In this document: positions 1 to 9,825 of the stretch, in pieces
Layout: each line of letters starts with the position of its first letter
Numbering within the stretch: the first letter of the stretch is position 1
DNA from: Candidatus Omnitrophota bacterium
GTDB taxonomy: Bacteria; Omnitrophota; Gorgyraeia; Pluralincolimonadales; Pluralincolimonadaceae
Reading direction: 5' to 3'
DNA: 64,000 bases
NCBI GenBank assembly: GCA_041651455.1
Contig: JBAZJG010000002.1
Coordinates: 49,431 to 113,430 of the forward strand
Translations under genes and position numbers: made by a program
Notes under the pieces: model-generated
What the model was told of the DNA's origin: nothing
Database searches by the model: none
What the model saw: only the letters and a program-made list of their open reading frames with translations

Positions 1-125
1 TCCGAAGTGTGCGCAGTTTTTTTGGCGAGAACGCCAAAAAAACAAGCGTTTACACGAGGAGAATGCTTTCACAAAATAGGAATTTACAGGCATGACAACC
101 ACTCATTACCGGTTCGTCACCATTG

Positions 126-158
126 ATACCTCACCCAATGTTTGGGTGAGGTATTTTA
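126..158 (+). terminator. Rho-independent terminator-like hairpin (12-bp stem atacctcaccca/tgggtgaggtat, 5-nt loop, then TTTT)
   Basis: Perfect inverted repeat read directly from the sequence, followed by a T-run. It lies immediately upstream of the AT-rich island. Confidence 0.6.
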
Positions 159-198
159 ATAAATTAGATAATTGCAGAAGTAAACGGAGGACCTAAAA

Positions 199-765
199 AT
201 GACAATTGATTGGTTAGCGGTTGCAACAATTGCAGCCCCAATTATTGCACTTTTTATCGGTGTCGCTATAGATCGATTTATCGAACAAAAACCAAAACTT
301 ATTGCATATTATACGCATGCTTCTGCTTTTAATACTGCCGGAAATAATCCAATAACTATTCATACTCATGGTATTATAATCAAGAATATTGGCAGAAAAT
401 CAGCAATGGATGTTCGAGTAAGGCATAATATTCTTCCTCAGAATTATAAAGTATATCCAATAGTTGATCATCATGTTCAAAATTTACCAGGCGGTGGATC
501 TGAAATTGTGTTTCCGATACTTGTTCAAAATGAGCAAGTATCGATATCTTATCTATATTTCCCGCCCCTAATATATAATCAAATTCACGCTGGTATTCGA
601 CACAGCGAGGGTTTTGCTTCTGAAGTCGCTGTTCTACCGACCCCACAATATCCAGATTGGATGAGAAGAGGGCTATATGTATTACTTATTTTGGGAAGCA
701 TCACATTCATATACATGTTTATTAAAGGGTGCTGTGTCGTAATAAAGTTACTAGCAAATATATAG
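199..765 (+). CDS. Hypothetical membrane protein (N- and C-terminal TM helices, beta-rich middle); island gene 1
   Basis: ORF with a GGAGG Shine-Dalgarno. Hydrophobic N-terminus (WLAVATIAAPIIALFIGVAI) and C-terminus (LYVLLILGSITFIYMFI). About 30% GC. Confidence 0.5.
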   Translation: MTIDWLAVATIAAPIIALFIGVAIDRFIEQKPKLIAYYTHASAFNTAGNNPITIHTHGIIIKNIGRKSAMDVRVRHNILPQNYKVYPIVDHHVQNLPGGGSEIVFPILVQNEQVSISYLYFPPLIYNQIHAGIRHSEGFASEVAVLPTPQYPDWMRRGLYVLLILGSITFIYMFIKGCCVVIKLLANI

Positions 766-806
766 GTACTAATAACGTAAGAAAATATAAAAATATCTAA
801 AATAAA

Positions 807-815
807 TGCTATAAT
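807..815 (+). promoter_or_regulatory. Extended -10 element TGcTATAAT upstream of island gene 2
   Basis: Exact TGnTATAAT match 23 nt upstream of the ATG at 838. Confidence 0.4.
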
Positions 816-837
816 ATAGAATATAAAAGAGGTAGTT

Positions 838-1221
838 ATGCAATCGCAATTCGCTTTTCTCTGCGACGCAGTAAATATAACACAAAATAATCTTTTTAAT
901 GTATTGGGAGGCGGAATTGAAAAATTTCATCTATCGCAGTTACCACAAAATAGACCAGTAGCTTTACTACTTAGAATTGAATATAATCCAATTACAGAGA
1001 ACGGAGATCATGTAATTGAAATAAGAATAATAGATTGTGATGGGCAAAATAAAATCTCTCCCGCCTTATTAAATGTTAGTTTTCCGCCGCAGGTAAGAAC
1101 ATTTAATATCGTAACCAACATGATTCCAAGGTTTGACAGATACGGAATGCATAGCGTTGAAGTGGCCGTAGACCGACATCATATAGTATCCATTCCTTTA
1201 AACGTTATAGAAAGAATCTAA
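838..1221 (+). CDS. Hypothetical protein (127 aa, beta-rich); island gene 2
   Basis: ORF with an AGAGG Shine-Dalgarno. AT-rich codon usage. No recognisable family. Confidence 0.5.
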   Translation: MQSQFAFLCDAVNITQNNLFNVLGGGIEKFHLSQLPQNRPVALLLRIEYNPITENGDHVIEIRIIDCDGQNKISPALLNVSFPPQVRTFNIVTNMIPRFDRYGMHSVEVAVDRHHIVSIPLNVIERI

Positions 1222-1276
1222 ATATTGCACATTTAAGGGCAATTACGTATTAATAAGAAGGGACAAGGAGGATTAG

Positions 1277-2041
1277 ATGGCTATAAAAGAGGTATTTATG
1301 AACCCAACCGTAAAAGAAGTAATATTTCAGATTCGATTTCCTAATTTGTTTTATATAGAAAATAAGATTGGCGAGATACAAACTAGAATTATGGAGAAAT
1401 TTCCAAAATCTGCACTCTTATTTAGAAGAAAATTACTTTTTGCTGATGTTGGCCCGGAAGGAAAAATCGAGGAAATTCCTTCAGTAGAAGGGCAGGGGAA
1501 GAAAATATGGAGGTTTAATTCAGATAATAATTTTCAGCTTAATATCTTAAGTGATTCATTGGACATTACTTCAAGCTATCACAAAACCTATAATCTTGGA
1601 GATGGCGACAAATTCAGAGATATCATAAAATATGTTATGGATAATTTTCTTGCCGTTGTGTCTTTACCTATAATTAATCGTATAGGATTACGATATGTTG
1701 ATGAATGTCCTGTGTTAGAAAAGACTAATTCAACATTTGCAAAATGGTATAACACCGCATTTCCATTAAGTAGATTTAGTATTGATAATGCAATAGAAAT
1801 GAGCTTTAATACAACCCTAAAACGATCAGAATATTGTATTCGTTATGTAGAGTCGTTAGCAAAGCATAAAAATAAGGAAGAATATAAATTAGTTCTTGAT
1901 TATGATGGATACGCGGTAAATATAAAGTCCAGCGAATATTTAAAAACTACGGATGAGCTTCATGATTTAATATCAAATGAATATGAAAACACCATTAAGG
2001 AGCCAGTGTACGAATATATGAGACATAAAAAGGAGGAATGA
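1277..2041 (+). CDS. Hypothetical protein, possibly TIGR04255-family-like (254 aa); island gene 3
   Basis: ORF with an AGGAGG Shine-Dalgarno. The N-terminal motif VKEVIFQIRFP recalls the (I/V)xEA(V/I)FE(L/I)RF start of TIGR04255 proteins, and the 250-260 aa length fits. This is from memory and was not checked against any database. Confidence 0.5.
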   Translation: MAIKEVFMNPTVKEVIFQIRFPNLFYIENKIGEIQTRIMEKFPKSALLFRRKLLFADVGPEGKIEEIPSVEGQGKKIWRFNSDNNFQLNILSDSLDITSSYHKTYNLGDGDKFRDIIKYVMDNFLAVVSLPIINRIGLRYVDECPVLEKTNSTFAKWYNTAFPLSRFSIDNAIEMSFNTTLKRSEYCIRYVESLAKHKNKEEYKLVLDYDGYAVNIKSSEYLKTTDELHDLISNEYENTIKEPVYEYMRHKKEE

Positions 2042-2044
2042 CAA

Positions 2045-2290
2045 ATGAATTATATAGATCAAGACATTGCGTATGGTATTAATGATAACGATGGAACTGG
2101 TAGTCATGACGACCAAATTGATTATAGGGTAGTATCCTATCCGTTTGATAGATATGAAATTAAAATTAAGATATCTAAGAATAATGAATTTTTAGGAATA
2201 GAGGAGGTTGGAATAAATAAAGAGTTCATGTCTTATCGGCAAAAATTATCTGTTAAGGGAGTGCACGATATTGATGAATTTTATAAGTAA
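2045..2290 (+). CDS. Hypothetical small acidic protein (81 aa); island gene 4
   Basis: ORF with an AGGAGG Shine-Dalgarno, starting 4 nt after the preceding stop (translationally coupled). Confidence 0.4.
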   Translation: MNYIDQDIAYGINDNDGTGSHDDQIDYRVVSYPFDRYEIKIKISKNNEFLGIEEVGINKEFMSYRQKLSVKGVHDIDEFYK

Positions 2291-2301
2291 TATGAAAAAC
2301 A

Positions 2302-2952
2302 ATGTTTTACTCAGATAAATGTGATAAAGAATTAAGATTCGGAGATGTATTAAAGGGCTTTATTTCAACAACGCCTTTCATTAAAGAGCCTATATTAAAG
2401 ATACCCCACAACGACTATAAAATAGATATTCAACTTCCAAGTTATTGTGTTGTATTGTCCCCCTGCTGCTCTATAAAAAAAAATAAAATTGATAAACAAA
2501 TATTGTTATCTCCGCTTATTCAAATTATCCCATCATTTTTTAATAACCAATATTTTATAGACGATTTAACGCGGATTAATCGAACAATGAATCCAGAGCA
2601 GACAGTAGCGAGGCATACATGGGAAGCATTGCCTACTGAGCAGAAACAGAAACGCTTAGAAAAAGGTGCAGGATATGCTTTTATAGAGTTATTTATATAT
2701 GAACCAAATGACTATTTCCCAAAGTATATTGTTAATAGGAAAGAGGGGAATATAGAGACAGGTTATTATATGATTGATTTTGGGAATACCTATAAAATTA
2801 ATTGTGAAGCATTGCAGGAAGGGCAGGAGGAAACCTTACTCGAGGCTAAATTGTGGCAACTATCCGTTAAGTCCAGACAAGAGCTGCGAGATAAAATTAC
2901 TTGTTATTATGGTAGAATTCCAGAAGAAGACAAAGCATTGATGGGAGACTAA
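2302..2952 (+). CDS. Hypothetical protein (216 aa); island gene 5
   Basis: ORF 12 nt after the previous stop, same strand, AT-rich. It carries Cys motifs (SPCCSIKK); no family recognised. Confidence 0.5.
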   Translation: MFYSDKCDKELRFGDVLKGFISTTPFIKEPILKIPHNDYKIDIQLPSYCVVLSPCCSIKKNKIDKQILLSPLIQIIPSFFNNQYFIDDLTRINRTMNPEQTVARHTWEALPTEQKQKRLEKGAGYAFIELFIYEPNDYFPKYIVNRKEGNIETGYYMIDFGNTYKINCEALQEGQEETLLEAKLWQLSVKSRQELRDKITCYYGRIPEEDKALMGD

Positions 2953-3141
2953 TTAGTATAATTATGTATATGATGGCGGATTCCCGCCATATGTACGCTC
3001 GCGCGGAGAGTTAAACGAAGTATTGTTATTCTCATCCGATTAATTCCATGCACCTTAAAACAAAGTCGCACTCTTGACTACACCAGTATCGGCATTGGCA
3101 AAGGTATAACTCACGAAATCTTAGACTAAGGAAGGCATAAA

Positions 3142-3555
3142 ATGAAAATAGTAAGAATACTCATCGCCGCAATAGCACTTTCGATCTTCGGCTTAATTAT
3201 CGGGGCAGTCACCTGCGGAGGCGTGTTCAATTGGGTATATAAGCTCGAGCCGACAAACGTCTGGAAGCCGATGGACGGCCCGCCGGGTATGGTATATCAC
3301 GTAGCCGGATTCATACTCAACGTAATACTCGCGGCTGTCTACGCTTTATTCCGTAAGGGCCTTCCCGGCAAGAACAGGCTGGTCAAGGGTCTTGTTTTCG
3401 GGTTATGCGTCTGGGCCGTCGGCATGCTGCCGGGAATGTTCGCGACATATTATTTCATGACGGTGGCTACCGAAGTCGTTATCTACTGGACTATACTGGG
3501 CCTGGTTGAATACCCCATCATGGGGCTGATAATCGCCGCCATATACGGCGAGTAG
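3142..3555 (+). CDS. Hypothetical integral membrane protein (4 predicted TM)
   Basis: ORF with GC-rich host-like codon usage and four hydrophobic segments. Confidence 0.5.
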   Translation: MKIVRILIAAIALSIFGLIIGAVTCGGVFNWVYKLEPTNVWKPMDGPPGMVYHVAGFILNVILAAVYALFRKGLPGKNRLVKGLVFGLCVWAVGMLPGMFATYYFMTVATEVVIYWTILGLVEYPIMGLIIAAIYGE

Positions 3556-3576
3556 GGAAAACCGAAAGGAGTACTA

Positions 3577-4146
3577 ATGTTCAGGAAAGCGGCATTATTT
3601 ATATTATTGGTAATGATGTTGGTCCCGATGTCGGTGCGCGCCGAGGAAAAACCCTTCCAGCTCGCGGTGGTAAATCCTCTCCAGCTCGTGCCGGAAGACC
3701 AGTCCATTAAAGGCGTAGGCCTCAACCTGCTCTACGGCTCCAATGAGAACTTCAGCGGCATAGACATCGGCCTCATAAACCACGTCAAGAGCCGCGCCAT
3801 CGGCCTGCAGTGGGGCGCCGCGAACGTGACGGAAGGCGATCTCAGCGGCATCCAGCTCGGTTTCGTGAACTGGACGACGGGCTACATGCACGGCGTGCAG
3901 CTTGGCGGACTGAACTTCTCGCAAGGCGACTCGCGCGGCATAGAGTGGGGCATAATGAACTACAGCAAGGACAGCTTCGGCGGGTTCCAGGGCGGTTTTT
4001 TCAACTACGCGGGTGAGATGCACGGCCTGCAGTTCGGCGTGATCAACGCGACGAAGAACCTCGACGGCCTCCAGATAGGCCTCGCGAACTACAACGGCAA
4101 CAAGAAGCCGATGGAGTTTATGGTATTGGTCAACTGGTCGTTCTAA
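3577..4146 (+). CDS. Secreted repeat protein (signal peptide plus about 8 tandem 15-aa xGxxxGxQxGxxNxx repeats)
   Basis: Signal peptide MFRKAALFILLVMMLVPMSVRA. Periodic G(I/V/L)Q(L/I/F)G...N(W/Y/F/A) units visible in the translation. Confidence 0.6.
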   Translation: MFRKAALFILLVMMLVPMSVRAEEKPFQLAVVNPLQLVPEDQSIKGVGLNLLYGSNENFSGIDIGLINHVKSRAIGLQWGAANVTEGDLSGIQLGFVNWTTGYMHGVQLGGLNFSQGDSRGIEWGIMNYSKDSFGGFQGGFFNYAGEMHGLQFGVINATKNLDGLQIGLANYNGNKKPMEFMVLVNWSF

Positions 4147-4158
4147 AAGGATGATACA

Positions 4159-4671
4159 ATGAAAAAGATCAAGGTTAAGATAGCAACGACCTTCGTATTT
4201 ATTGCGGTATTACTGATCTTGTGCTCAAATCTCCTTCGGGCAGAAGGCCTTGGGAGCCGCTTGGCAAACATTAAGACGCTTGAGGGTTATACGCTAAAGG
4301 CTGAATCCGACCGCGGGTGCTCGTATTACAATGAAAAGGAAGGAACTACGCTGATCATCGGGCTTGCCGGCGCTGACAAACAGGGATTCTCAAAACAGTT
4401 GCAGGATAAAAAGTTCGTAAAAGGGCTTATTGACGGCCAGGAGGACACTGGCAGGATAAAGATCGAAAGCCATAAGGTCATAGAGATTGAAAAGATCCCG
4501 ACTGTTGAATTTTCGGGAAAAATAGATGTTTCAGGGGGCGGGAGATGGTTGCCCGAAAGAAAGATCATATTTTCCAAAAGCGGACAGATATACAATATTT
4601 CCTTGATCGGGCCAAAAGAATATATAGAAAATCAAACGAACTTGTTAATCGAGATTGCGCAAAAGCTGTAG
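4159..4671 (+). CDS. Hypothetical secreted protein
   Basis: ORF with an N-terminal signal-like hydrophobic segment. Confidence 0.45.
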   Translation: MKKIKVKIATTFVFIAVLLILCSNLLRAEGLGSRLANIKTLEGYTLKAESDRGCSYYNEKEGTTLIIGLAGADKQGFSKQLQDKKFVKGLIDGQEDTGRIKIESHKVIEIEKIPTVEFSGKIDVSGGGRWLPERKIIFSKSGQIYNISLIGPKEYIENQTNLLIEIAQKL

Positions 4672-4683
4672 GGGGCGCATGCC

Positions 4684-4875
4684 GTGAAAAAAGCGGCCTT
4701 TGGAACACTATGGTTCATAATACTGCTTATCCTCGTTCCTCACCCTAACGTTGATGATTATGAGTATGCCAGGCTTGCAGGAAGGGTCGTAATAAACCTT
4801 GCTTTATTACCGGTGCTTATAGTGACGATAATGCTTGTTAAAAAGGGGAAATTGCCTGGAACAGGCTCAAAATAA
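4684..4875 (+). CDS. Small hypothetical membrane protein (63 aa)
   Basis: Short ORF with two hydrophobic segments; weak support. Confidence 0.3.
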   Translation: MKKAAFGTLWFIILLILVPHPNVDDYEYARLAGRVVINLALLPVLIVTIMLVKKGKLPGTGSK

Positions 4876-4958
4876 TAGTTATTGCAGTAGCCCCTAATTT
4901 GAGGTAAAATCTTTCCAATAGGGCGGCCGATCGTCGGCGCCTTAAAAAAGGAGGAAAC

Positions 4959-5129
4959 ATGGGGTACCAGGGTGGTGGCGGTGGTGGCGGATTCGGTGGG
5001 CCGAGGGAAATGCACAAGGCGACATGCGCGGACTGCAAAAAAGAATGCGAAGTCCCGTTCAAGCCGAGGGATGACCGTCCCGTGTATTGCAAGGACTGCT
5101 TCTCGAAGCGCAAGAACGAAGGACGTTAA
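4959..5129 (+). CDS. Small Gly-rich zinc-ribbon protein (56 aa; CxxC-x17-CxxC), missing from the ORF track
   Basis: ATG at 4959 with an AAGGAGG Shine-Dalgarno. Translation is MGYQGGGGGGGFGGPREMHKATCADCKKECEVPFKPRDDRPVYCKDCFSKRKNEGR, stop TAA at 5127-5129. A strong terminator follows. Confidence 0.6.
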   Translation: MGYQGGGGGGGFGGPREMHKATCADCKKECEVPFKPRDDRPVYCKDCFSKRKNEGR

Positions 5130-5160
5130 CGATACGCTGTTAATCAGCGAATAACAGGAT

Positions 5161-5196
5161 CCCCCTGCAATTAAAAGTTGCAGGGGGATTTTGTTT
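5161..5196 (+). terminator. Rho-independent terminator (10-bp GC-rich stem ccccctgcaa/ttgcaggggg, 7-nt loop, T-rich tail)
   Basis: Perfect hairpin read from the sequence, followed by ATTTTGTTTG. Confidence 0.8.
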
Positions 5197-5213
5197 GCGG
5201 TAAAATCAATACA

Positions 5214-6437
5214 ATGGAAAAAGGCAACGGTGTATCTTTTATCGACCGTATAACGGTCTCCCTGCTCGTGGTCGGAGGCATAATCGGCGCCGGGATACTC
5301 GCACTTCCCGTCAATACCGGCCTCGCGGGCTTCATCCCGTCACTGCTGAACCTGCTGCTCTTCGGCGCGGGCATGTTCTTTACCGCGAACGTGCTGGCGA
5401 GGGAAGCCGTGCTCGAGAAGACGGATAACTTCAACTACCCGAGCATGTACCGCAAATACCTCGGCGTGACCGGCAAGTGGGTGGCGACCGGCGCGAACCT
5501 CTTTTTGCTCTACGGACTGCTCGTCGCCTATATCACCGGCGGCTCCACGATAATATCGAACCTCTTCAATATCCCCGCGGAATACTACAGGCCGGTGACG
5601 ATAGGGTTCTTCTTCATCCTCGTGGGAATAATAGCGATGGGTTTGGGCGTTATCGTAAAGATAAACGCCGTATTCACGGTGCTGATGTTCACGACGTTCA
5701 TCGCGATAGTCGCGATGGGCATCCCGCACGTGAAGGCGCAGAACCTGACATACAAGGACCTGCAGTTCCTGCCGTGCACGGTGCCGATAATCGTGACCGC
5801 GTTCAATTTCCACAACGTGATACCTACCGTCTGCAAGTCGCTGAAATGGGACATCCTGCTTATCCTGAAGACGATACTCATCGGGATGGCCATCGGCTGC
5901 GCCATGTACGCGCTGTGGATGTTCGTCGGGATAGGCGCGTTGCCGGTGGAGGGAGGGGACGCGAGCCTTATCTTTGCCTTCGATAACAACCTGCCCGCTA
6001 CAATACCGCTGTCAAGGATGGTAGATAACGGGGCATTCCTCGTTATCGCGATGGTGTTTTCGCTGGTCGCGCTGAGCGCCTCATGCATAGCCAACAGCAC
6101 GGGCCTGCTCGCGTTCGTGGAAGACCTTATGTCGAATACGTTCGGCGTGCATAACAGGATGCTTTGCGTGGTCATCGCCTTTATCCCGCCGCTCATCATA
6201 TCGCTGATATTCCACGGCATCTTCCTTAAGGCGCTCAATATCGTCGGCGGCTTCGGCATAATCCTGCTGTTCGGCATACTGCCGAGCGTCATCGCGATAT
6301 CGAAGACGAAGGGCTGGCGGCGGGAGGTCGCGTTCCTGATAATGCTGGTCTTCCTCGCGTCATTCGTCTTCGAGATATTCCAGGAGACGGGGCTCTTGAG
6401 GATCAGGCCCGAGGTGGAGTACTACAAGGGCAATTGA
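5214..6437 (+). CDS. Amino acid permease (HAAAP/AAAP-type, about 11 TM)
   Basis: GIIGAGILALPVNTGLAGF motif and polytopic membrane profile. The ATG at 5214 is preferred over the track's TTG at 5178, which lies inside the terminator stem. Confidence 0.7.
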   Translation: MEKGNGVSFIDRITVSLLVVGGIIGAGILALPVNTGLAGFIPSLLNLLLFGAGMFFTANVLAREAVLEKTDNFNYPSMYRKYLGVTGKWVATGANLFLLYGLLVAYITGGSTIISNLFNIPAEYYRPVTIGFFFILVGIIAMGLGVIVKINAVFTVLMFTTFIAIVAMGIPHVKAQNLTYKDLQFLPCTVPIIVTAFNFHNVIPTVCKSLKWDILLILKTILIGMAIGCAMYALWMFVGIGALPVEGGDASLIFAFDNNLPATIPLSRMVDNGAFLVIAMVFSLVALSASCIANSTGLLAFVEDLMSNTFGVHNRMLCVVIAFIPPLIISLIFHGIFLKALNIVGGFGIILLFGILPSVIAISKTKGWRREVAFLIMLVFLASFVFEIFQETGLLRIRPEVEYYKGN

Positions 6438-6448
6438 GCGGCGAAGGC

Positions 6449-7750
6449 CTATGCGCGGCCGCTGCGCGAGGATTTTTCCTGCAGTATCTTTACTACCATC
6501 GGGTCCACCCCGAACATCCCCCTAAGCGAGACCATGCTGAGGTTGGCTATCGTCTCTTCCGGGGACTTGCCTAATACGCCGTCCTCCACGGATATCCCGT
6601 AACCAGCCAAAGCCATGAAAGCCGAGCGCATAGCCGTCTCGGCGCCGGTGACTATCTTCATCGAGCAGCCGGGCTTCGCGCCGTCGCAGATCATGCCGGT
6701 AAGGTCGCTGGCGACGTTATCCATCGCAAACGATATCTTCTTCATATCTATGCCGGCCTTCTGGTAGACGAGGGCTATCGCCGTAGAGATGCTGGCGGCT
6801 ATCGCGCAGCCGCAGATCACGGAGAGTTCGCCGAGGAAACATTTTATGTAGGAATTCACCGCGTGGCTTATCGCGATGCTCTCCTCGATGCGCGCCGGGT
6901 CGATCTTTTGGTCAGTCCCGACAAGGTAGGGGACTAATATCGTCAGCGCGCCCTGGTTGCCCGAACCGCCGGAAGTCATTACGGGTTCAGGCATGCCGCC
7001 CATTCGCGCGTCTACGGCGGCAGCGACGCGGATCTTGACCCTGTTAAAGAGATCGTTGCCAAGGAGGCCGCCCTTTACCATCTGCTCTATCTGGTAGCCG
7101 GTCCTCTTCATTCCGATGCCTTTTTCGGATATCGCCATGTTCATCTCGATGCCGCGGCGGATATGCGCGCGCATGCTTTCATCGAGTTTTACCGCCTCGC
7201 GCAGGACCTCCTCGAGCTTCATCTTCCTGAGGATGTCGTGGTGGTCCTTGGCTTTCTTGCCGGCGTGCGGGTGCGCGGCCAGGATCGACTTGCCCTCCTT
7301 TTCGAGGCAGGTAATGTTCGTGTGCCCTTCCGAGACGATGCAATGCACGCGGGAGCCGCCGCCTTCGGCGTATACCTCGACATGGAAGCTCTTTTCGTCC
7401 TCCTTGCAGGAATATTCTATAGCGCCTTTATTTATGAGTTCGCGCGCTTTTTTAAGCGTGTCGGGCGGGACCTCTTTAAGTATCTCGAGCCGCAGGGACG
7501 ATCTGGCGATGACCGCTCCGAGCGCCGCGGCTATCACATTGCCTTTCTCTCCGCCGCTGTTCGGGATAGTGACCGCCGCGCCGTTTTTGAACGTGCCGGC
7601 GTCTACGATGAGCTCGAGTTTTTCAACGGGCGCTTTCAGCTGCTCGACGGCCGCAGCCGCCGCGTAAGCGCAGGAGATCGGTTCGGTGCATCCGATGGCG
7701 GGGAAGACCTCGTTCGCGAATATCTCGTTGAGAAGATCTGTGTTTTTCAT
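6449..7750 (-). CDS. UPF0597/YhaM-family protein (serine dehydratase-like, L-cysteine desulfidase family)
   Basis: N-terminal EVFPAIGCTEPISCAYAAAAA and the overall length match the YhaM family. Confidence 0.75.
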   Translation of the reverse strand: MKNTDLLNEIFANEVFPAIGCTEPISCAYAAAAAVEQLKAPVEKLELIVDAGTFKNGAAVTIPNSGGEKGNVIAAALGAVIARSSLRLEILKEVPPDTLKKARELINKGAIEYSCKEDEKSFHVEVYAEGGGSRVHCIVSEGHTNITCLEKEGKSILAAHPHAGKKAKDHHDILRKMKLEEVLREAVKLDESMRAHIRRGIEMNMAISEKGIGMKRTGYQIEQMVKGGLLGNDLFNRVKIRVAAAVDARMGGMPEPVMTSGGSGNQGALTILVPYLVGTDQKIDPARIEESIAISHAVNSYIKCFLGELSVICGCAIAASISTAIALVYQKAGIDMKKISFAMDNVASDLTGMICDGAKPGCSMKIVTGAETAMRSAFMALAGYGISVEDGVLGKSPEETIANLSMVSLRGMFGVDPMVVKILQEKSSRSGRA

Positions 7751-7815: not shown

Positions 7816-8388
7816 ATGGCAAAGAAAATACTCATCCTCAACGGAAGCCCAAAGAGGGGCGGGAATACCGAAATACTCGCCGGATGGTTCGCCGAAGGCG
7901 CGCGCTCAAAAAGCGAGGCGGTAGAGACCGTTCGCGTCGCGCCGCTGAAGTATAAAATCAGCGGATGCACGTCCTGCAGGAAGTGCCAGGAGATAAAAGA
8001 GTATGTATGCGTGATCAAGGACGACGCACGTCCCGTCCTGAGAAAAATGGCGAAAGCGGATGTTATAGTATTCGCGACGCCGCTTTATTTCTACGGGCCG
8101 AGCGCCCAGCTGAAAGTGCTGATAGACCGCATGTTCTCGCTCTATAAATGGGACAACGCGACCGACACTTACGAGTCACCTTTGAGGGGCAAGACGATGG
8201 TCCTGCTGTTGAGCGCGTATGAGGATGTCGGCCTGAAGAACGTGGAAGAGATGTTCAGGATAATAGCAGATTACAGCGAGATGAAGTTCTATTCCCTCCT
8301 CGTGCCGGATGCCCGCGAATCCGGTGATATCCTGAAGCTGAAAGGTGTCCGCGAAAAGGCCGCGGCCCTCGGGAAGAGAATGGCCTAA
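7816..8388 (+). CDS. NADPH-dependent FMN reductase / flavodoxin-like iron-sulfur flavoprotein
   Basis: KILILNGSPKRGGNTEIL and ADVIVFATPLYFYGPSAQLKVLIDR motifs, typical of FMN_red. Confidence 0.8.
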   Translation: MAKKILILNGSPKRGGNTEILAGWFAEGARSKSEAVETVRVAPLKYKISGCTSCRKCQEIKEYVCVIKDDARPVLRKMAKADVIVFATPLYFYGPSAQLKVLIDRMFSLYKWDNATDTYESPLRGKTMVLLLSAYEDVGLKNVEEMFRIIADYSEMKFYSLLVPDARESGDILKLKGVREKAAALGKRMA

Positions 8389-8400
8389 GCGCCTTACCAG

Positions 8401-9825
8401 ATGAAAAATAATAAAATTACGGCACATGAGAGGGGCAGCATAGGCGAGATGGTCGCCATCGCGCTGCCGATGGTCGTTTCGGCGTCCTGCGACACGATAA
8501 TGGTCTTTACCGACCGTCTTTTCCTGTCGCGGCTCGGGCCGGAGATGATGAACGCCGCTATGGGCGGCGGCCTGACGTCTTTTATGATGATGTCTTTCTT
8601 CCTCGGCCTTACGGGATATTCGACGGCGCTGGTTGCGCAATATCTCGGGGCAGGGAGGAAGAGGAACTGCGCGGGCGTCATATCGCAGGCGGCCATAATC
8701 TCGCTCGCGGCTTATCCTATAATACTGGCGCTCCGCCCTCTTGGACACATGCTGTTCGAGGCGGCGGGGACCGCGCCGTCCCAGCTTGTCCCGCAGAAAC
8801 TGTATTTCAATATACTGCTATGGGCGTCCGTAATAGGCCTGTTGAGGAACTCGATCAGCTCGTTCTTCTCCGGGACCGGGCGGACCGCCGTCGTGATGGC
8901 GTCTTCGCTGACCGCGATGGTCGTCAACGTCTGCCTGAATTATGTGCTGATATACGGCAAGTTCGGCGTGCCGGCCATGGGCATCCGCGGCGCGGCGTAC
9001 GGGACCGTCGCCGGAGGCCTCTGCGGCCTTGCCGTGCTCGCCGCTGTGTACTTCAGCAAGGAGAACCTCAAGGAGTTCCACATACCGGAAGCCCTGCGTT
9101 TCGACAGGGCAGTGATGAAAAAGCTCCTGCGCCTCGGGTCTTCGGTCGGCGCGGAGATGTTCCTGAATATCCTCGCGTTCAATACGATGGTCTTCATATT
9201 CTATTCGCGCGGCCCGGTGACAGCGACCGCCGCGACGGTCATGTTCAACTGGGATATGGTCTCGTTCGTCCCGCTTATCGGCGTGGAGATAGGGGTCACC
9301 AGTTTAGTCGGGCGCTGCATGGGCGCCGGCGACCCGGCTACCGCGCAGCGTTCGGTGCAATCGGGGCTGAAGCTCGGGCTGGCCTATTCGGCCGTCATCC
9401 TGGTGTTGTTCGCGGGGTTCCCCGGCATGCTCGTTAAGGTCTTCCGGCCCGAGGTCGCGGACAACATCTTCGCGGCCGCGGAGCCGACGGCCGTCTTCAT
9501 GGTGAGGCTCGCCTCGCTGTATGTGCTTGTCGAGGCCCTGCTCGTCGTGTATATCGGAGCGCTGAGGGGCGCGGGGGATACTCTATGGGCGATGGGGATG
9601 TCCGTGACGATGCATTGGGCGTCGGCAGGCGTCCTTGCGCTGATGTTGTCGACCGCAGGGGCCACGGCGGAAACCGCGTGGACGGTAATGGTGGCGATGT
9701 TCATACTTTTCTCAGGTATCGTCATCATGAGGTACAGGAGCGGCAAGTGGAAGTCGATAAAGGTCGTGCACCCGGAGCCGGTACTGATACCGGGCGAAAG
9801 TTTTCATGAAACGCCCGACATTTAA
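8401..9825 (+). CDS. MATE family multidrug efflux transporter
   Basis: 12-TM profile and MATE-like N-terminal motifs ([26 protein letters not shown]). Confidence 0.85.

Follow-up and report, generated by a model that had tools for sequence, protein, structure and literature searches.

Several tripartite toxin-antitoxin (TA) systems are known, including omega-epsilon-zeta, paaR-paaA-parE and TAC (M. tuberculosis TAC and CmdTAC), in which three genes are co-transcribed and a third component regulates or stabilises the TA pair. The usual position of the antitoxin is that of a small protein encoded directly upstream of the toxin gene. In archaea, few TA or defence systems have been tested. A split effector has been described for type II Gabija, where the MazF-like domain of GajC is split by five inserted helices (Liu-DS1; Nucleic Acids Res 2026, gkag308, PMC13069673). 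The partner of GajC is the UvrD-type helicase GajB, and reports of the pair come mostly from Pseudomonadota and Thermodesulfobacteriota (PMC13069673).

We analysed a 64,000-nucleotide stretch of Candidatus Omnitrophota DNA (the window) with a five-gene island, g1 to g5, at its left end. The best explanation of our data is that three of these genes, g3-g4-g5 (1277-2952), form a self-contained operon that is the functional core of the island.

Features of the island and its edges (positions are those of the window)
Feature	Position	Strand	Description	Basis
Left hairpin	126..154	+	Perfect 13-bp stem (126-138/142-154) downstream of tRNA-Asn; marks the island's left edge	Inverted-repeat search
Island	156..3138	.	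Low GC (33%), strain-variable, at a tRNA-Asn hotspot; patchwork made up of g1, g2 and the g3-g4-g5 cassette	GC, GC3, relatives
g1	199..765	+	188 aa; TM segment at each end; outside the cassette	Hydropathy
g2	838..1221	+	127 aa; DUF6941 (PF22091)	Pfam, E 3e-17
g3	1277..2041	+	254 aa; TIGR04255 family; first and best-conserved cassette gene	NCBIfam HMM
g4	2045..2290	+	81 aa; mildly acidic, pI 4.7; middle cassette gene	ORF, present in 50/50 trio loci
g5	2302..2952	+	216 aa; predicted MazF/CcdB-type barrel, interrupted by five inserted helices (residues 77-121)	Predicted structure
Right hairpin	2973..2990	+	7-bp GC-rich hairpin ATGGCGG-attc-CCGCCAT, 20 nt past the g5 stop	Read from sequence

A low-GC island at a strain-variable tRNA-Asn site

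The original prediction described a segment of about 30% GC against 58-60% for the DNA to its right. The low-GC island is confirmed, with 33.2% GC at 156-3138, but the remaining window has a GC content of 55.7%. In 3-kb windows of this remainder the standard deviation is 2.0 and the minimum 50.8, placing the island approximately 11 standard deviations from the window mean and excluding chance. GC3 ranges from 0.23 to 0.30 across g1-g5, compared to 0.54-0.82 in the next host genes.

Comparison with relatives moved both borders from where they had been predicted (a compositional break at about 2995 on the right, and a left border outside the window). In relative L075, homology continues until window position 155, is lost, and is regained at 3139 with different cargo, setting the right border at 3138/3139 and the left border at about 155/156. 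In relatives L074, L076 and L077, divergence begins at the 3' end of a tRNA-Asn gene. This gene occupies 2886-2961 of L001, a contig reaching further left, and ends 31 nt left of window position 1; the left border is therefore at most 31 nt outside the window. Flanks of strains with differing cargo at this site are 86-92% identical. One relative carries an XRE and IrrE/M78 pair as alternative cargo, and L076 carries a large serine recombinase and primase-type element at the same tRNA-Asn. The tRNA-Asn site is a strain-variable integration hotspot. Since the island adjoins a tRNA gene, differs in GC (33% vs 56%) and lies where L074-L077 diverge (at the tRNA or the hairpin), with other cargo in relatives, we classify it as a tRNA-associated island. 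As had been proposed, it is foreign, horizontally acquired DNA. Of the marks of integration named for the sequence to the left (integrase, tRNA, att repeat), the tRNA is present; no recombinase ORF was detected within 1-3138, and the direct repeats flanking the island are unconvincing, being matches of chance size only.

The five ORFs are all on the same strand, as described. They are closely packed, with gaps of 72, 55, 3 and 11 nt in order, but none overlaps, as some had been thought to do. A strong GGAGG ribosome-binding site, predicted for each gene, is found only upstream of g1, g3 and g4; the g2 site is GAGG, and none is obvious for g5. The predicted extended -10 element (TGCTATAAT) is found at 807-815, but such matches are not enriched in the AT-rich stretch. 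Likewise, the proposed terminator at 126-158 does contain a perfect stem, but has a weak T tail and was not called by the terminator scan. Since this hairpin is conserved in L075, it belongs to the host DNA. The right hairpin is without a T run and was also not called by the scan; it possibly marks the end of the operon. No known ncRNA or type III-style RNA antitoxin was detected by Rfam and TRF. An identical g1-g5 block is also present on L002, a contig from another run, but at strain level this is the same sequence and no independent case.

Linkage and spread of the g3-g4-g5 cassette

When all five proteins were searched against Pfam, NCBIfam, PHROGs and PADLOC, TIGR04255 (g3) and DUF6941 (g2) were the sole matches, and the claim that none of the five belongs to a housekeeping family holds. 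For PADLOC-DB 2.0, the defence-system check that had been suggested, no model matched any of g1-g5 at E <= 1.

The genes g3, g4 and g5 are direct neighbours in conserved order at 50 of 50 genome loci with enough contig, always with g4 in the middle. At most loci the gaps within the trio measure -14 to +12 nt, indicating translational coupling. Clustering of 386 flanking ORFs revealed no fourth conserved gene. In particular, neither g1 nor g2 is present at any of the 50 loci, so the anticipated co-occurrence of all five genes is restricted to the trio. A toxin- or defence-like module is present in the island, as predicted, but it is not a unit of five genes. More generally, an island defined by composition need not coincide with a functional module: only three of these five genes belong together.

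The other two genes are separate passengers and not members of the cassette. The predicted membrane protein, g1, is hydrophobic at residues 1-29 and 157-188 and has no family match in Pfam, NCBIfam, PADLOC or PHROGs. Its 187 homologues, mostly from Omnitrophota, constitute a solo gene family; in three independent contexts they occur without a DUF6941 gene and without g3-g4-g5, and a scan of viral contigs was essentially empty. Since g1 was not found at the 50 trio loci and its own contexts lack the trio, we consider it unrelated cargo. A small membrane protein had been cited as a typical feature of defence cassettes, but g1 never accompanies the trio elsewhere. The g2 protein matches DUF6941 with 63.6 bits (gathering score 27; residues 4-123 align to profile positions 1-124 of 125). 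It is absent from all other loci examined (trio loci and g1-homologue contexts), has no match among phages, plasmids or viral contigs, and its sequence has none in the PDB. Literature searches found no paper on DUF6941.

The cassette is distributed across about 15 bacterial phyla and many archaea, among them ANME methanotrophs, Bathyarchaeia and a cultured Asgard archaeon, Promethearchaeum syntrophicum MK-D1, whose copy lies at about 965.3-966.9 kb of NZ_CP042905.2. For 14 of 47 g3 sequences and 13 of 47 g5 sequences, the closest relative belongs to the other domain. The g3 proteins of a KSB1 bacterium and a Methanophagales archaeon are 82% identical, and the g3 and g5 pairs are concordant. 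In nearly all hosts the cassette has a lower GC content than its flanks. The trio is thus strictly linked, and has been transferred repeatedly and recently between bacteria and archaea as a unit. The three proteins retain their full lengths at 40-65% identity in approximately 50 distant hosts, a pattern that clearly points to purifying selection. Some cassette copies are frameshifted, with g3 and/or g5 broken and g4 intact.

Elsewhere, the cassette is found as single insertions among housekeeping genes. Annotation of 150 immediate neighbours with Pfam and PADLOC gave mostly housekeeping functions, with a mild excess of restriction-modification (RM), integrase and TA genes. Among the genes beside certain copies of the trio are HipA, integrases and RM genes of type IIG or type I. 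Searches with g3 and g5 found hardly any copies of the cassette in plasmids, phages or viral contigs. The exceptions are one g3-like gene (26% identity) in an archaeal virus, and g3 on three viral contigs, one copy of which is truncated.

Candidate roles of the cassette proteins

The N-terminus of g3 had been likened to TIGR04255, and this was borne out by a full-length match to the family model (76.5 bits, cut-off 30; E 2.8e-21; residues 8-246 align to profile positions 3-249 of 252) and by its NCBI name, "TIGR04255 family protein". Its predicted structure is an alpha+beta platform with a pseudo-repeat. A profile search with g3 against PDB sequences found no match, a family-wide scan of g3 homologues gave no consistent weak Pfam match, and the searches run detected neither an RHH/HTH regulator nor a SecB-like chaperone. 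An initial match of g3 to DUF4474 was rejected, as it fails to recur in g3 relatives. We found no paper on TIGR04255 in literature searches. The protein is a candidate sensor, regulator or enzyme.

As predicted, g4 is acidic. It contains the conserved motifs GTG, YPFDKYEI and HDVxEFY. It has no match in Pfam, NCBIfam, PHROGs or PADLOC, 23 of its homologues gave none in a family-wide Pfam scan, and its profile against the PDB gave nothing below E 0.6. It matches none of the known antitoxin families MazE/AbrB, CcdA, RHH, Phd/YefM and HTH-XRE. We consider g4 a candidate antitoxin or adaptor.

The predicted structure of g5, which contains six cysteines (a Cys-containing protein had been predicted), has a CcdB/MazF-type barrel fold. 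By DSSP, the modelled helices at residues 77-81, 83-87, 89-93, 104-109 and 112-121 lie between strands 66-71 and 130-133. No sequence counterpart to this fold was detected. Neither g5 nor 30 of its homologues matched any Pfam family at E <= 10, including MazF/PemK (PF02452) and CcdB (PF01845), and the g5 profile had no match among PDB sequences. Alignment of the g5 family by hhalign to MazF/Kid/ChpBK/EndoA (a reference alignment confirmed against the PDB at approximately E 1e-49) gave a probability of 0.1%. Furthermore, a profile search of 1.84 billion representatives found no bridge from g5 to MazF or to fusions, and returned a closed family of 366 proteins. Invariant residues are R12, D15, C55 and DLTRINR. 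By eye, the strand equivalent to the MazF RP-motif strand reads (F/Y)xVVLSPCCSI and has no preceding Arg. Judging from the model, g5 is a candidate toxic effector.

We consider the chances about even that g3-g4-g5 is a new tripartite toxin-antitoxin or abortive-infection module. In such a module, g5 would be a growth-arresting effector, acting most likely on nucleic acid as MazF does. The g4 protein, translated just upstream of g5, would be a protein inhibitor of g5, and g3 would be a third component controlling g4/g5, either as a sensor or trigger for the release of g5 or by regulating the operon. We infer each of these roles: the toxicity of g5, its neutralisation by g4, and the part played by g3. 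The decay pattern, in which g4 always stays intact, is suggestive and favours a TA system, with too few events for significance. Also in its favour are the strict linkage and coupled operon structure of the trio, the mobility, low GC and insertion sites of the cassette, the modelled g5 fold and the position of g4 directly upstream of g5. Counted against it, g5 shows no sequence link to MazF, PemK or CcdB and lacks the MazF Arg at the corresponding strand by eye, g4 matches no antitoxin family, no DNA-binding domain was detected in g3, g4 or g5, PADLOC gave no match, defence or mobile genes are only mildly enriched among neighbours, and plasmids, phages and viral contigs hardly carry the cassette.

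A narrower version of this explanation is that the trio is a dedicated anti-phage system and not an addiction-type TA module. By analogy with GajB-GajC of type II Gabija, g3 would sense infection and activate the split-MazF g5, with g4 as an adaptor or brake. The g5 architecture fits the description of GajC, the distribution is patchy, cross-domain and low in GC, the hotspot holds conflict-type cargo in relatives (the XRE and IrrE/M78 pair and the integrative element), and some neighbours are RM (type IIG, type I), HipA or integrase genes. However, PADLOC gives no match, neighbours are mostly housekeeping genes, the cassette has no helicase or other recognised sensor domain, and the likeness of g5 to GajC is one of described architecture. 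We hold the anti-phage explanation, in the sense that the trio serves biologically in defence, only tentatively. Defence is suggested mainly by the g5 fold and, given the lack of a PADLOC match and the mostly housekeeping neighbours, it stays a suggestion. It is also possible, and in our view well short of probable, that g3-g4-g5 is an unrecognised three-component conflict or immune system of Bacteria and Archaea, in which the TIGR04255 protein acts as the sensor for, or enzymatically controls, a split-MazF effector; if true, this would be the first function for TIGR04255.

An explanation with no conflict role is improbable. The trio would then be an accessory operon, for example for nucleic-acid or small-molecule modification, with g3 as an ATP-using enzyme of glutamine-synthetase/guanidino-kinase fold and the g5 barrel as a binding domain. 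Insertion directly 3' of tRNA-Asn, the recombinase and primase-type element of L076 at the same tRNA, and the lack of an integrase or flanking direct repeats are consistent with the island being a decayed remnant of an integrative element, its leftover cargo without present function. This is very unlikely, as all five ORFs are intact and the trio is clearly under purifying selection in approximately 50 distant hosts. As an account of how the DNA arrived, and not of what the cassette does, a remnant is compatible with g3-g4-g5 being the functional core. Finally, all five genes could be one defence system, in which g1 (as membrane protein) and the small proteins act with g3-g5. The common strand, low GC, close spacing and identical block on L002 fit such a system. 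However, L002 adds no independent support, g1 and g2 are missing from 50 other trio loci, and g1 homologues stand alone in three unrelated contexts, making a five-gene system extremely improbable.

TIGR04255 is a curated family that is routinely assigned in annotation, and one large branch of it is strictly linked to a protein of predicted toxin fold and a small partner. This linkage gives the family a concrete, testable role. Since the cassette has repeatedly crossed between bacteria and archaea, its function must work in both cell types, which is unusual and would be useful for comparing archaeal TA and defence mechanisms.

Comparison with known systems

As in other tRNA-linked genomic islands and defence hotspots, insertion is directly 3' of a tRNA, composition is foreign, relatives hold alternative cargo, and one relative bears an element with a recombinase. 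Unlike them, this copy lacks an integrase or att repeat, is only 3 kb, and consists of three unrelated units.

Compared to MazEF, Kid-Kis and CcdAB, g5 has double the length, and its model adds the five inserted helices and further helices at the C-terminus. Sequence and profile comparisons show no similarity, and by eye no MazF catalytic Arg motif was seen. The g4 protein is unrelated to MazE, Kis and CcdA and has no detectable DNA-binding domain, and an obligatory third gene (TIGR04255) is a feature of the cassette. Relative to tripartite TA systems, no search identified g3 as an RHH/HTH regulator or as a SecB-like chaperone, and the toxin fold and families differ; the cassette likewise has three genes, and its order of large, small and toxin-like resembles regulator-antitoxin-toxin.

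With GajC of type II Gabija, compared by description and not by sequence, the g5 model shares its layout of five helices inserted in the barrel. No GajB-type helicase was found in the island or beside the cassette at other loci; the partners are instead a TIGR04255 protein and an 81-aa protein, and the hosts are anaerobic sediment bacteria and archaea. If the trio is the three-component conflict system considered above, it would provide a second, helicase-independent context for a GajC-type effector. The cassette would also carry the split-MazF effector architecture beyond Gabija-like systems.

Limits and composition of the island

An exact-protein look-up identified L001, a 19.8-kb ENA contig that covers the left end of the window and a further 2,992 nt to its left; NCBI lists the island proteins under locus tags WC481_01390 to WC481_01410 of a Candidatus Omnitrophota MAG. 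The left flank in L001 carries genes for a ferredoxin and for the alpha and beta subunits of a 2-oxoacid:ferredoxin oxidoreductase, followed by tRNA-Asn(GTT). With the beta subunit as query, a metagenome scan recovered four relatives with 86-92% nucleotide identity in the flanks. In L074, L076 and L077, similarity to the window flank ends exactly at the tRNA 3' end. In L075 it runs past a hairpin to window position 155 and picks up again at 3139, 3 nt before the ATG of a gene for a 137-aa membrane protein; at the same site, L075 carries a different 2.7-kb low-GC cargo (3340-6061) that includes an XRE-type HTH_3 protein paired with an IrrE/Peptidase_M78 protein, together with unknowns. Because the relatives diverge at the tRNA end or at 155, L075 rejoins at 3139 and the cargo differs, the island spans approximately 156-3138 and sits at a strain-variable tRNA-Asn hotspot. 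Its left boundary, originally placed outside the window, therefore lies inside it or at most 31 nt outside.

The insert at tRNA-Asn in L076 (2360-8405) is an integrative element, with a large serine recombinase overlapping the tRNA end, then a sigma-like gene and a gene for an NrS-1-type primase-polymerase. tRNA-Asn(GTT) serves this Omnitrophota lineage as an integration hotspot. Of the integrase, tRNA or att repeat to be sought near the left edge, the tRNA was found, but ORF and repeat inspection of 156-3138 detected neither a recombinase nor convincing att repeats. A perfect 12-bp inverted repeat (GTTTTTTTGGCG / CGCCAAAAAAAC, 16-43) between the tRNA and the 126-154 hairpin is host-side and common to L075. 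A second strain-variable patch (~4145-4868, 42-48% GC) has other sequence in the close relative L075.

The DNA around g1-g5 is 29-37% GC. Over the limits set by comparison with relatives (156-3138), GC is 33.2%, against 55.7% for the other 61 kb of the window (3-kb windows outside the island: sd 2.0, minimum 50.8), and GC3 is 0.23-0.30 in g1-g5 compared to 0.54-0.82 in the next host genes. On these figures, the foreign composition is real and far beyond chance. The original prediction was right about an abrupt low-GC island, but the host is nearer 56% than 58-60%. The five ORFs share the + strand and are close-packed, though none overlaps another. A strong GGAGG-type site was described for every ORF, but a GGAGG precedes only g1, g3 and g4. 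The supposed clean terminator at 126-158 contains a perfect hairpin (126-154), but its T tail is weak and a terminator scan did not call it.

Features in and near the island (window coordinates unless stated)
Feature	Position	Strand	Remarks
tRNA-Asn(GTT)	L001 2886-2961		ends 31 nt before window position 1
g1	199-765	+	ORF call
g2	838-1221	+	ORF call; DUF6941
g3	1277-2041	+	ORF call; full-length TIGR04255 member
g4	2045-2290	+	ORF call
g5	2302-2952	+	ORF call
170-aa ORF	4159-4671		in second strain-variable patch
63-aa ORF	4684-4875		in second strain-variable patch
56-aa ORF	4959-5129		Gly-rich N-terminus, two CxxC pairs (zinc-ribbon-like)

Linkage and host range of g3-g4-g5

An alignment of g3 homologues was scanned against one genome per species (185,579 species), yielding 57 loci to which the five window proteins were compared by tblastn. 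g3 is followed immediately by homologues of g4 and then g5 in 50/50 loci with enough contig (g4 of L039 was seen only at a relaxed threshold and that of L024 by ORF inspection). Intergenic distances are mostly -14 to +12 nt. No homologue of g1 or g2 was detected by tblastn at any g3-g4-g5 locus of the 57-locus set, and clustering of 386 flanking ORFs revealed no further conserved neighbour. g1 has 187 homologues, mostly in Omnitrophota; in three independent contexts, one of them beside a prophage-like block, it stands alone. Since the trio is collinear at all 50 loci, g1 and g2 never accompany it and g1 occurs alone elsewhere, the island is a mosaic of two unrelated single genes and one conserved three-gene operon. 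Thus co-occurrence in unrelated genomes, suggested as a check on a five-gene module, holds for g3-g4-g5 but not for g1 and g2.

As predicted, g1 has hydrophobic segments at both ends. A homologue with 59% identity from the window's own ENA sample (L072, 6001-12603) lies at the border of a prophage-like block that contains MerR-type regulators, Phage_rep_O and a TerL terminase. Members of this two-TM family may travel as passenger genes of phages or islands, e.g. for superinfection exclusion.

Among the 57 loci, archaeal g3 hosts include Bathyarchaeia, Methanophagales/ANME, Pacearchaeota, Methanomethyliaceae, Methanosarcina, Methanocellaceae and Promethearchaeum syntrophicum MK-D1; bacterial hosts include KSB1, Chloroflexota, Zixibacteria, Chlorobium, Ignavibacteria, many Planctomycetota, Marinimicrobia, Desulfatiglandales, Firmicutes, Gastranaerophilales and others. 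In nearly all hosts, the cassette has a GC content about 5 to 24 points lower than its flanks, and it nears host GC only in high-GC Planctomycetota. The nearest relative belongs to the other domain of life for 14/47 g3 and 13/47 g5 sequences, and g3 of a KSB1 bacterium is 82% identical to that of a Methanophagales archaeon. In both g3 and g5, a cassette from Neomarinimicrobiota shares 80% identity with archaeal ones, showing that the unit transfers whole. The trio behaves as a mobile, selfish unit. On long contigs it stands singly amid housekeeping genes, e.g. adjoining alaS or downstream of ruvB. Defence and mobile genes are only thinly scattered among 150 immediate neighbours (integrases (3), type IIG RM (2), a type I methyltransferase, HipA and XRE-type HTH proteins; the rest housekeeping), and searches of plasmids, phages and viral contigs found it nearly absent. 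Frameshifts affect g3 and/or g5, but not g4, in a few copies, too few events for significance.

In a Phycisphaeraceae genome (L047), the cassette (8001-9639) lies ~400 nt downstream of tRNA-Asn(GTT) (7532-7604), a second, independent link to that tRNA. An archaeal virus, Caudoviricetes sp. vir080 (L154; BK063677.1, 51298-53145; host Methanobacteriales), has a gene for a distant TIGR04255-like protein, 26% identical to g3 across 95% of g3. Overlapping 160-aa, 137-aa and 66-aa genes without family match come after it and could represent another set of partners for the family. In IMG/VR UViG_3300046697_000117 (L157, 8001-8834), unrelated DNA truncates a g3 homologue at about residue 243, and neither g4 nor g5 is present; either an insertion or a junction has broken up the cassette. 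An ORF upstream resembles a DNA C5-methyltransferase, as assigned by eye from sequence.

The three proteins

The suggested resemblance of the 254-aa protein to TIGR04255 was borne out. g3 is the best-conserved trio protein, with many invariant charged residues, a pattern compatible with an enzyme or with a specific binding surface. Its predicted model (pLDDT 86) is an alpha+beta platform with a pseudo-repeat; Foldseek returned nothing significant (top match YwmB, E 4e-3). A 19-nt near-identical repeat (TATAAAAGAGGTAGTTATG / TATAAAAGAGGTATTTATG) occurs at 822-840, ending in the g2 start codon, and at 1282-1300, inside g3 codons 3-8, where it provides an alternative RBS and an ATG at 1298. The start at 1277 appears likelier, because homologues keep residues upstream of 1298.

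g4 is about 80 aa and mildly acidic (pI 4.7), as expected, with a variable N-terminus and conserved GTG, YPFDKYEI and HDVxEFY motifs. It matched no antitoxin family or solved structure.

The g5 profile, run against 1.84 billion representatives, defines a closed family: 366 proteins of about 200-230 aa each. The family (30 members) had no match in Pfam, g5 had none among PDB sequences, and hhalign gave a probability of 0.1% against a manually entered MazF alignment that was validated against PDB. At the level of sequence, there is no signal between g5 and MazF. The fold predicted for g5, a MazF/CcdB-type barrel split by a five-helix insertion, is of a type known almost only from toxins. Invariant residues are R12, G14, D15, P54, C55, the DLTRINR motif (in the insertion), R192, R196 and K198. 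Since the MazF 'RP' motif is not among them, g5 may act by a mechanism other than that of MazF.

Interpretation and comparison with known systems

Strict association of the trio, translational coupling, cross-domain mobility, foreign composition, variable insertion sites and a toxin-type fold together suggest a tripartite toxin-antitoxin or abortive-infection module, a reading of the whole that we put at an even chance. In such a module g5 would be the effector, g4 (from its position) the likely inhibitor, and g3 the controller, whether sensor, regulator or modifying enzyme. Anti-phage defence as the biological role is a tentative and rather doubtful proposal; no PADLOC model matched any of the five island proteins. 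That the trio is an accessory operon with no conflict role, g3 being an enzyme, is improbable. A system made of all five genes, with g1 and g2 missing from every other trio locus compared, is essentially excluded. We found no literature on TIGR04255 or DUF6941; linkage in the trio offers a first testable role for TIGR04255. As a cassette common to bacteria and archaea, including an Asgard isolate, the putative module is a candidate system worth interest.

The cassette may be likened to a MazEF/CcdAB-type module with a third gene added. However, g5 falls outside those families by sequence, g4 is not among known antitoxins, and the searches made with g3 pointed to neither a DNA-binding regulator nor a SecB-like chaperone. 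By predicted layout, the closest experimentally supported counterpart is GajC, the split-MazF effector of type II Gabija, but the GajC partner genes are entirely different from those of the cassette. In the GajC system, replacing the beta1-beta2 loop led to loss of anti-phage defence (PMC13069673).
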